A DNA stretch of 64,000 nucleotides from the NCBI RefSeq assembly GCF_013122565.1, contig NZ_CP053258.1; one strand, given 5' to 3'. Positions 29,772 to 63,078 of this stretch are shown here, in pieces; positions within the stretch are counted from its first letter, which is position 1, and every line of letters begins with the position of its first letter. The DNA comes from Escherichia coli (lineage in GTDB: Bacteria; Pseudomonadota; Gammaproteobacteria; Enterobacterales; Enterobacteriaceae). A program made the position numbers and the translations under genes. The notes beneath the pieces are model-generated. The model saw only the letters and a list, made by a program, of their open reading frames with translations, did no database searches and was not told the origin of the DNA.

Positions 29772-29785
29772 TGTAATTGTGGATA

Positions 29786-29832
29786 TTGCCGGATGCGCTG
29801 CATCCGGCAATCGGTGCCAAATGCCGGATGCG
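29786..29832. repeat. REP element(s) between convergent mglC and preA
   Basis: Perfect palindrome ttgccggatgc-gct-gcatccggcaa, then a second partial gccggatgcg copy. Confidence 0.6.
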
Positions 29833-35956: not shown

Positions 35957-36907
35957 ATGCGTGTGTTACTGGCACCGATGGAGGGAGTGCTTGACTCTCT
36001 GGTGCGTGAATTGCTGACCGAAGTTAACGACTACGATCTGTGCATCACCGAGTTCGTCCGCGTGGTGGATCAACTGCTGCCGGTAAAAGTTTTTCATCGC
36101 ATTTGCCCTGAGCTACAAAACGCCAGCCGGACACCATCCGGTACGCTGGTGCGCGTGCAGTTGTTGGGTCAGTTCCCACAATGGCTGGCAGAGAACGCCT
36201 CCCGTGCGGTGGAATTAGGTTCCTGGGGCGTGGATCTCAATTGCGGCTGCCCGTCGAAAACGGTTAACGGTAGCGGCGGCGGCGCGACGTTACTCAAAGA
36301 TCCTGAACTCATCTACCAGGGTGCAAAAGCGATGCGTGAAGCTGTACCGGCGCATTTGCCCGTCAGCGTGAAAGTGCGTCTGGGCTGGGACAGCGGTGAG
36401 AAGAAATTTGAAATCGCCGATGCGGTTCAACAGGCTGGCGCTACGGAGCTGGTGGTGCATGGGCGGACGAAAGAGCAGGGTTACCGCGCGGAGCATATTG
36501 ACTGGCAGGCGATTGGTGAGATTCGCCAGCGGCTGAATATTCCGGTGATTGCCAACGGTGAAATCTGGGACTGGCAGAGCGCGCAACAATGCATGGCGAT
36601 CAGCGGCTGCGACGCAGTGATGATTGGTCGCGGGGCGCTCAATATTCCCAACCTGAGCCGGGTAGTAAAATATAACGAACCGCGAATGCCGTGGCCGGAG
36701 GTGGTTGCTTTGCTGCAAAAATATACCCGTCTGGAAAAGCAGGGCGATACCGGGTTATATCACGTAGCGCGGATTAAACAGTGGTTGAGTTATTTGCGTA
36801 AAGAATACGCTGAAGCAACAGAATTATTTCAGCATGTTCGGGTGTTGAATAATTCCCCTGATATTGCAAGGGCTATTCAGGCAATTGATATCGATAAGCT
36901 GCGATAA
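35957..36907 (+). CDS. dusC: tRNA-dihydrouridine(16) synthase
   Basis: ORF-track starts at a TTG (35891); ATG at 35957 gives [19 protein letters not shown]... matching DusC. Confidence 0.9.
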
Positions 36908-37294
36908 TAGTGGAATCGCAGCTTATCAGAGACAATGAATCGCTTATTCAGCTTCATCATCTTGTTGCGCTCCTTTCATGAACTAAGCCATATATTGCCA
37001 CTGGCGCAAGGAGCGCGCAGGGGGAGGACAATCGCCTCCTCCCCCTGCACCCCCGGGCTCTGGCGAACAAAATCGCCGCTGCGCGGTACCTTCAGCTTAT
37101 CCCCTTCGGCTACCGGGTCGGGCGCGAGGTAACGTCCTTGTAAGACGCGCCCTCAGCCCACATCCATGTGGGCTGTCCCGGCCTTCGGGGAACGCTTCAG
37201 CGATTTTGACGCCACCAACACCGGAGCTGTTTGCAAATCAAGTACACAAAATATCTAGTTCCTGACCTGACAACTTATATGCCATATCTGATTT

Positions 37295-37378
37295 TTAAAA
37301 TATCATCTTAAATACGCCAGTCACCACCAGTAGCCCAATCAGGAAAATAATCAATACAGCCCAGAGTATAATTTTCAT
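37295..37378 (-). CDS. yohP: Small membrane protein YohP (27 aa)
   Basis: Hand translation of the minus strand: MKIILWAVLIIFLIGLLVVTGVFKMIF*, a single hydrophobic helix; below the ORF-track size cut-off; matches YohP from recall. Confidence 0.75.
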   Translation of the reverse strand: MKIILWAVLIIFLIGLLVVTGVFKMIF

Positions 37379-42414: not shown

Positions 42415-42595
42415 TAGGCAGGATAAGGCGTTTACGCCGCATCCGGCATTCGGAGCACAATGCCTGATGCGATGTTTGCGCATCTTATCAGGCCTACAAA
42501 CGTGACGCGTCCGTAGGCAGGATAAGGCGTTCACGCCGCATCCGGCATCCGGTGCACGCTGGCTGATAAGATGCTTGCGCATCTTATCAGGACTC
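42415..42595. repeat. BIME/REP cluster between convergent pbpG and dld
   Basis: Two copies of gcaggataaggcgtt(t/c)acgccgcatccggcat plus repeated gcgcatcttatcagg units. Confidence 0.75.
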
Positions 42596-61928: not shown

Positions 61929-62037
61929 ATATTCATCCCTGAAATGTATTAATGAAATAAACGATATTTTACGCGCAATAAATGTTTGGTGCATTAGTTG
62001 TTTGAGCGAAAAATATCTGGAAAGCAGATCACAGTAA

Positions 62038-62120
62038 ATAAAAAAACCTGCTGGTGAGGCAGGTTCTTTTATTTACTACAGTGACGCTAACTTGCTGATT
62101 GTGCAACATTTCGTACCAAC
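62038..62120 (-). ncRNA. orzO: OrzO-like type I antitoxin sRNA (about 83 nt)
   Basis: Minus-strand promoter (-35 TTGCAA at 62150-55, 17-bp spacer, -10 TATAAT as reverse complement of 62127-32); 5' region complementary to the zorO 5' UTR; ends at hairpin aacctgc-tggtgag-gcaggtt (62045-62065) followed on the minus strand by TTTTTTT. Confidence 0.7.
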
Positions 62121-62126
62121 GAATAA

Positions 62127-62177
62127 ATTATAACCATATCCACACTCCATTGCAATTCAGTGAGTGAGATTTATAAT
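62127..62177. promoter_or_regulatory. Overlapping divergent promoters of orzO (-) and zorO (+) sharing one -35 hexamer
   Basis: Palindromic TTGCAA (62150-55) serves as -35 for +strand -10 TATAAT (62172-77, 16-bp spacer) and -strand -10 TATAAT (62127-32, 17-bp spacer). Confidence 0.65.
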
Positions 62178-62358
62178 CCTGCCCGTTGGGAGGTTGTGCC
62201 GGATCGGACCAATTTTAAGTCCTGGCTGCCGGACGGGTGGTGCCGCAGGCGGTGCCCTGATCCGGAGAGCAACGTTTCGTACCAACATACGTAAACCAGT
62301 ATCGACAGGCAGTGTAAGGGTAAGGTGCTGGTGTTGCGCTCCTTAATAAGGAGAGCGG

Positions 62359-62448
62359 ATGGACACGCTGACACAAAAGTTAACCGTGCTCATTGCCGTA
62401 CTGGAGTTATTAGTGGCTCTGTTACGGTTGATTGATTTGTTGAAGTAA
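62359..62448 (+). CDS. zorO: Type I toxin ZorO (29-aa hydrophobic peptide)
   Basis: Hand translation MDTLTQKLTVLIAVLELLVALLRLIDLLK*; strong SD aaggag 5 nt upstream; about 174-nt 5' UTR from the predicted TSS; matches my recollection of ZorO from E. coli O157:H7. Confidence 0.85.
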   Translation: MDTLTQKLTVLIAVLELLVALLRLIDLLK

Positions 62449-62469
62449 CGGGCAAATTGAAACGCATCT

Positions 62470-62496
62470 AAGGGGGAATACCGTTTCCCCCTTTAA
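62470..62496 (+). terminator. Terminator hairpin after zorO
   Basis: Stem aagggggaa / ttccccctt with 6-nt loop, short T tail. Confidence 0.55.
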
Positions 62497-62645
62497 TAAA
62501 ATGATTACATCTTCCATTAATTCACCCGATAACTTTTTTCATATTTATAAATTCATCGATTTTATAATCAACGTACTATTTGGCCGGGATGTGAATAATC
62601 ATGGTGGGCTATTGGCGAAAAATATCTGGAAAGTAGATCGCAGAA

Positions 62646-62729
62646 AATAAAAGAACCTGCTGGTGAGGCAGGTTCTTTTATTTACTACTTTGATGTTAAG
62701 TTACTGATAGTGCAACATGGCATCTCAAC
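62646..62729 (-). ncRNA. orzP: OrzP-like type I antitoxin sRNA
   Basis: Same architecture as orzO: -35 TTGCAA 62759-64, -10 reverse complement of 62736-41, hairpin 62654-62674 plus T-run on the minus strand. Confidence 0.65.
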
Positions 62730-62735
62730 GAACGA

Positions 62736-62786
62736 ATTATAACCACCTCGGGGCCGTGTTGCAATTAAGATAATGAGATTTATAAT
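62736..62786. promoter_or_regulatory. Overlapping divergent promoters of orzP (-) and zorP (+)
   Basis: Shared TTGCAA (62759-64); +strand TATAAT 62781-86; -strand TATAAT reverse complement of 62736-41. Confidence 0.6.
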
Positions 62787-62967
62787 CCTGACTGTTGGGA
62801 AGTTGCGCCGGATCGAACCCATTTCAAGTCCTGGCTACCGGACGGGTGGTGCCGCAGGTAGTGCTCTGATCCGGAGTGCAACATGGCGACTCAACATACG
62901 TAAACCAGTATCGACAGGCAGTGTAAGGGTAAGGTGCTGGTGTTGCGCTCCTTAATAAGGAGAGCGG

Positions 62968-63057
62968 ATGGACACGCTGACAAAAAAGTTAACCGTGCTC
63001 ATTGCCGTACTGGAGTTATTAGTGGCTCTGTTACGGTTGATTGATTTGTTGAAGTAA
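62968..63057 (+). CDS. zorP: Type I toxin ZorP (29 aa; one substitution, Q6K, relative to the upstream copy)
   Basis: Hand translation MDTLTKKLTVLIAVLELLVALLRLIDLLK*; identical SD and context to zorO. Confidence 0.85.
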   Translation: MDTLTKKLTVLIAVLELLVALLRLIDLLK

Positions 63058-63078
63058 CGGGCAAATTGAAACGCATCT

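Follow-up and report, generated by a model that had tools for sequence, protein, structure and literature searches.

A perfect 13-bp hairpin across the dusC stop codon in one of two Escherichia dusC-yohP spacer alleles: a possible protective stem-loop of the dusC message

A perfect inverted repeat that runs across the stop codon of a gene, with no U-tract behind it, raises the question of what such a structure is for. Here we consider an element of this kind at the 3' end of dusC, within a stretch of 64,000 nucleotides of Escherichia coli DNA that was analysed as a whole and is referred to below as the window. The region around 36.9 kb of the window is the E. coli dusC-yohP-mdtQ locus, with yohJ/yohK upstream. 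The two genes that enclose the hairpin are:

35957 to 36907, + strand: dusC, tRNA dihydrouridine(16) synthase, assigned by RefSeq homology and translation; an allele of 316 amino acids with the end ...AIDIDKLR.
37295 to 37378, - strand: yohP, the gene for a small membrane protein of 27 amino acids, convergent with dusC.

An earlier note on this DNA described the element as a perfect 12-bp inverted repeat with an 11-nt loop containing the dusC TAA. The positions given there for the arms, gataagctgcga (36893-36904) and tcgcagcttatc (36916-36927), are exact, and the TAA is indeed found at 36905-36907. However, T36905 and A36915 form an additional pair, so that the perfect stem is one pair longer, at 13 bp (36893-36905 with 36915-36927), and the loop is 9 nt. 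The stop codon therefore spans the junction between stem and loop, and an in-frame TAG comes directly after it. Six of the 13 pairs are G-C. The parts of the hairpin are:

36893 to 36905, + strand: left arm, made up of the last four dusC codons (GAT AAG CTG CGA, encoding D K L R) and the T of the stop codon.
36906 to 36914, + strand: loop, AATAGTGGA, comprising the last two bases of the TAA and then the in-frame TAG.
36915 to 36927, + strand: right arm, ATCGCAGCTTATC, which is non-coding and bears most of the natural variation (for example C36922T, in 805 genomes).

The palindrome is real and not a product of chance. Its predicted RNA folding energies on the + and - strands are -20.3 and -21.1 kcal/mol, with a z-score of about -6, and none of 200 shuffles folded equally well. 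A count of perfect inverted repeats with arms of 12 bp or longer and loops of 3-20 nt gave five places across the 64 kb, where a dinucleotide shuffle gave 0.085; for 13 bp the count was two, where 0.02 would be expected. A further perfect 12-bp hairpin lies at 37017-37048, within the GC-rich repeat described below (GCAGGGGGAGGA...), and two more are found at 29785-29811 and 42563-42590; one of these has REP-like sequence (ATTGCCGGATGC...), and the other reads CTGATAAGATGC...GCATCTTATCAG. It is worth adding that a perfect 17-bp hairpin is found elsewhere in the window (62645-62683), between the two copies of a tandem duplication that covers 62006-63058, with a spacing of 609 bp and 86-92% identity. 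Each copy carries a 29-codon hydrophobic frame, MDTLT[Q/K]KLTVLIAVLELLVALLRLIDLLK, and the duplication resembles the type I toxin-antitoxin pair of the zorO/orzO type in pathogenic E. coli.

For a stem at the end of a gene, the first function to be considered is termination. The stem itself is within the range for an intrinsic terminator (G+C-rich, about 5-14 bp; here 13 bp with 6 G-C pairs, at -20.3 kcal/mol), but the U-run is absent. Beyond the stem the + strand continues with AGAGACAAU and the - strand with GAUAUCAAU, neither of which has a U-run, and a terminator scan returned 0 terminator-like sites in the dusC-yohP spacer, both in this allele and in the allele of K-12. These results bear out the earlier statement that the hairpin has no U-tract and is no classical terminator.

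The hairpin element is single-copy, with one place per genome and no second copy in the window, which rules it out as a REP/BIME repeat. A comparison with Rfam at permissive thresholds gave matches at chance level only (for example mir-599 at 17.9 bits, where the gathering score is 94). The hairpin does, however, have a repeat as its neighbour:

36947 to 37218, no strand assigned: GC-rich multi-copy repeat, with a median of 4 places per genome, 88% identical to the flipped copy in the K-12 allele.

The homologous core of this repeat starts at 36947, so that the hairpin is 20 nt outside it, and the putP-efeU copy of the repeat is free of the hairpin. The proposal that the hairpin is part of the repeat is thereby ruled out; it is an allele-specific flank. 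The putP-efeU copy, which is plasmid-borne (locus L088, 2415-2555), is shorter: a central stretch of ~125 bp that contains both AYGGAY-type hairpins is missing from it, and the repeat is therefore modular. When compared with the Rfam family TwoAYGGAY, the repeat core gives a match that is reproducible and full-length but sub-threshold (26-31 bits, with a gathering score of 43), located at 37070-37209 in the window (- strand) and at 1763-1914 in the K-12 allele (locus L002, + strand). In the fold, one hairpin loop has AUGGAU and a second loop contains GGA; its direction is that of yohP in the hairpin allele and that of dusC in the K-12 allele. The curated K-12 record carries no annotation of the repeat. 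Two rearrangements of the repeat were also seen: in E. coli SMS-3-5 (locus L007, ~820-1251) an IS110-family transposase element is inserted within the repeat of a K-12-type spacer, and the E. albertii type strain (locus L010, 1200-1290) has lost a stretch that begins in the left part of the repeat and reaches into yohP, so that it appears to have no intact yohP.

The spacer between dusC and yohP exists in two forms. Out of 5426 complete E. coli genomes, 2002 (37%) have the window-type spacer through the hairpin, and the other 63%, including K-12, do not have the hairpin. Strains of the hairpin type include B2 (ST131, Nissle 1917, PMV-1), ST648, O26, O111 and O157:H7. K-12, BL21, HS and SMS-3-5 are among the remainder, and in these the match to the window ends at about 36894-36900, with divergence thereafter. 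DusC has the C-terminus ...DIEKL in the K-12 type as against ...DIDKLR in the hairpin type. The exchanged stretch is:

36898 to 37293, no strand assigned: allele-specific dusC-yohP cassette; K-12-like strains have another cassette in its place.

The spacers are ~395 bp long in both alleles and have in common a core of ~272 bp, which is 88% identical and in opposite orientation. The flanks between this core and the genes, including the right arm of the hairpin, align between the two alleles no better than shuffled sequence, in either orientation. A simple inversion of the whole spacer is thus unsupported, the 272-bp core being the only part that is demonstrably flipped. In the K-12 allele the last codons can pair with a downstream T-run, at only -6.9 kcal/mol and no better than shuffles. 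Given this, and the unalignable flanks, we dropped the idea that the K-12 allele shares the outer stem through compensatory changes. Both types of spacer cross species, the hairpin type being present in E. albertii, E. whittamii, E1V33 and E69 and the K-12 type in MOD1-EC7003. The earlier note had made conservation in close relatives part of the test of its proposal, and here the picture is divided: the hairpin is missing from the K-12-type majority of E. coli, and it is kept in the remaining 37%, in E. albertii, in E. whittamii and in two more Escherichia lineages. The two-allele spacer with its flipped repeat is more unusual than the hairpin itself.

Variants of the hairpin were counted by exact-match searches among the 2002 carrier genomes, as follows:

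Hairpin sequence of the window: 37 genomes.
Perfect stem, with A36928T directly outside it: 1109 genomes.
C36922T: 496 genomes.
C36922T together with A36894G (O157 type): 309 genomes.
Other hairpin variants: 51 genomes.

The stem is perfect in 1146 of these 2002 genomes (57%), and a further 40% have one or two changes that create G·U pairs. Both C36922T and A36894G give a G·U pair on the + (dusC) strand and an A·C mismatch on the - strand, and the variant stems have energies of -17.3 to -18.3 kcal/mol on the + strand, compared with -10.5 to -15.7 kcal/mol on the - strand. Among the rare E. coli variants are one with a mismatch (PEC408) and one with a 4-nt duplication, GATA, in the loop (TUM13936).

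This asymmetry is relevant to the possibility that the hairpin acts on the - strand, either as the 3' end or a structure of a transcript that runs from yohP or the GC-rich repeat toward dusC, or as part of the mRNA of an antisense frame:

36885 to 36968, - strand: 27-codon antisense frame, with AAGGAG 7 nt before the ATG, extending across the hairpin and into the last part of dusC.

The perfect version of the stem is equally stable in that direction (-21.1 kcal/mol), in the hairpin allele the repeat has its TwoAYGGAY-like fold on the - strand, and the antisense frame with its ribosome-binding site, unbroken in most Escherichia carriers, crosses the hairpin. However, the changes present in 805 genomes weaken the stem precisely on this strand, to the energies just given, and a promoter scan of both alleles found none pointing toward the hairpin. 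The frame has no NCBIfam match and is broken by frameshifts in E. albertii and TUM13936, and it was rejected as a gene on these grounds. We consider a - strand role to be very unlikely.

The same changes in the arms break the symmetry of the DNA, which leaves the earlier suggestion of a protein-binding palindrome unsupported. A wider form of this idea is that the hairpin is a DNA-level site for protein binding or recombination, connected with the way in which the repeat cassette next to it was inserted or inverted. It would account for the point at which the alleles diverge, 36898, being inside the left arm, for the recurrence of the motif CAGCTTATC at the left end of the repeat and again within it, and for the fact that the same repeat has received an IS110-family element in SMS-3-5. 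Against this, the symmetry is lost in frequent variants, the hairpin is single-copy, and it stands outside the repeat and is missing from the putP-efeU copy; moreover, arms of 13 bp around a spacer of 9 bp do not resemble the usual operator sites. Such a DNA site is in our view highly unlikely.

The comparison can be extended to other Escherichia. The hairpin of Escherichia sp. E1V33 is identical, that of E. whittamii and strain E69 has one mismatch and one G·U pair, and that of E. albertii, in which the inner helix is shortened, has a compensatory change from A-U to G-C and one A·C mismatch. Over nine distinct Escherichia sequences, 96.6% of the pair cells are paired; one pair is compensatory, four vary to G·U only, and three have a mismatch. 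The covariation score is not significant, being reached by 55 of 500 shuffles. One-sided transitions are biased 4 to 1 toward G·U, which is also non-significant, and three of these four are C-to-T, the commonest mutation. Conservation of the right arm does not exceed that of its surroundings, 2 of its 13 positions being changed in E. whittamii as against 9% for the cassette, and more in E. albertii. Taken together, the variation leans toward an RNA stem on the dusC strand, and stops short of proving selection.

Outside the genus, 80 species-level relatives were compared. The last residues of DusC vary freely across them. In Citrobacter amalonaticus, C. sedlakii, Salmonella and Enterobacter quasihormaechei the gap between dusC and yohP is 32-103 nt and is filled by one terminator or REP hairpin; in Escherichia the gap is 346-397 nt. 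Three Citrobacter species (loci L014, L015 and L025) have a strong hairpin around the dusC stop, with different arms and no U-run. The loops of these hairpins start with TAATAGG, which resembles TAATAGTGG of the window, and their inner helix, CGGCCA/TGGCCG, is similar to the stem of the C. amalonaticus terminator, CGGCCAC/GTGGCCG. In Pectobacterium the dusC stop is enclosed by GGTGAGC...GCTCACC, with a U-rich tail. We infer from these sequences that placing a stem at the stop of dusC is a solution that recurs. The short similarities further suggest that the E. coli hairpin may be descended from an old dusC/yohP terminator, whose U-tract was lost when the spacer expanded.

These comparisons also bear on the possibility that the hairpin is a neutral quasi-palindrome with no function. 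Its right arm would then have come from local duplication or template switching beside the mobile repeat, so as to complement the last dusC codons, and would now be decaying slowly. The arm, GAATCGC-AGCTTATCA, does indeed look like a partial copy of GAATCGC-TTATTC-AGCTTCATCA, which is 24 nt downstream. The arms have evolved at least as fast as their flanks, covariation is non-significant, most E. coli do not have the hairpin, and one strain has a mismatch and another the 4-nt loop duplication, all of which agree with such a history. On the other hand, the stem persists at -13.8 kcal/mol or better in at least four Escherichia species-level lineages, the common variants without exception preserve pairing on the + strand, with one change being compensatory, and stop-spanning dusC hairpins recur in other genera. 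A neutral origin with no function is a serious rival, if less likely than not.

The existence, strength, uniqueness, allele distribution and variation pattern of the stem are established. As to its function, the best explanation, to which we give a probability of roughly 0.45, is that the dusC mRNA ends in it as a U-less protective stem-loop, a type already described in Rho-dependent transcripts. Dar and Sorek (2018; PMC6061677) reported that stable stem-loops without a following U-run, and with a mild downstream enrichment of C over G, shield Rho-dependent transcripts from PNPase and RNase II. The dusC hairpin is likewise a stable stem-loop with no U-rich follow-on, and beyond it there is:

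36928 to 37005, + strand: untranslated spacer directly 3' of the hairpin, a putative Rho-loading region.

The composition of these 78 nt is 26% C and 17% G, a C/G ratio of 1.54, which is in the 93rd percentile of 78-nt windows and is therefore a mild and non-specific feature. Transcription of dusC would continue beyond the stop codon and would be terminated further downstream, probably through Rho loading on this C-rich, G-poor untranslated stretch, or at the highly structured GC-rich repeat. Exonucleases acting from 3' to 5' would digest the RNA as far as the base of the 13-bp stem, and the outcome would be a defined and protected 3' end a few bases past 36927, and a longer-lived dusC message. 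Because the left arm consists of the last four codons, with the stop reaching into the loop, the stem would form only after the last ribosome departs.

A 3' stabilising stem was one of three ideas put forward in the earlier note, and it is the one favoured here, on account of its position at the end of the message, the pairing kept on the + strand only, the C-rich and G-poor 78 nt, and the existence of a published class, although the covariation is non-significant. The proposal of an RNase III site fares less well. Typical RNase III substrates are double-stranded almost without interruption over about two helical turns, or some 20 bp and upward. The dusC stem is perfectly double-stranded but at 13 bp is below this length, and the folds show no coaxial extension of the helix; that RNase III processes the 3' region of dusC at this site is accordingly extremely unlikely.

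The annotation and literature searched contain nothing on this hairpin, and that literature nothing on the dusC 3' end or the GC-rich repeat. Those supplements of K-12 3'-end mapping studies that were covered name neither dusC nor yohP. A Term-seq dataset exists for O157:H7 Sakai (PRJNA601151), a strain of the type whose hairpin allele has two G·U pairs. The hairpin appears to be a new example of an ordinary, known type of feature, and is dispensable in most E. coli. If the protective stem-loop is correct, it provides another case in which an E. coli message without a classical terminator gains a defined and protected end. The gene dusC, which serves tRNA modification, is non-essential, and any direct effect on the cell is therefore likely to be minor. 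The natural pair of alleles, one with a strong stem and the other with almost none, could nevertheless be used to gauge the value of such a stem. A more ambitious proposal is that the two alleles constitute an old system across Escherichia, in which the TwoAYGGAY-like repeat of ~272 bp is placed in the dusC 3' region (K-12 type) or in the yohP 3' region (hairpin type), with a strong stem insulating the dusC message in the hairpin type only, and with different regulation of the stress-induced YohP or of dusC as the result. We regard this as distinctly unlikely.

Finally, the hairpin can be set beside the known systems that it most resembles. Bidirectional intrinsic terminators between convergent genes occupy the same position relative to dusC and yohP, but the E. 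coli hairpin has no U-tract on either strand, a 9-nt loop and G-C at only 6 of its 13 pairs. REP/BIME elements that stabilise mRNA 3' ends are also palindromes at the end of a gene that can potentially block exonucleases; the dusC hairpin differs in being single-copy, in having no REP consensus and in being half coding. With template-switch quasi-palindromes it shares a perfect inverted repeat in which the second arm complements nearby sequence, beside a local partial duplication, although that category describes an origin and not a function. From the class of Dar and Sorek (PMC6061677) it differs in that the stem includes the final codons and part of the stop, and in that it is found in only one of two alleles. 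It agrees with that class in its stability, in its position where a gene ends and in the absence of a U-run, and the sequence behind it has a mild, non-specific excess of C over G.
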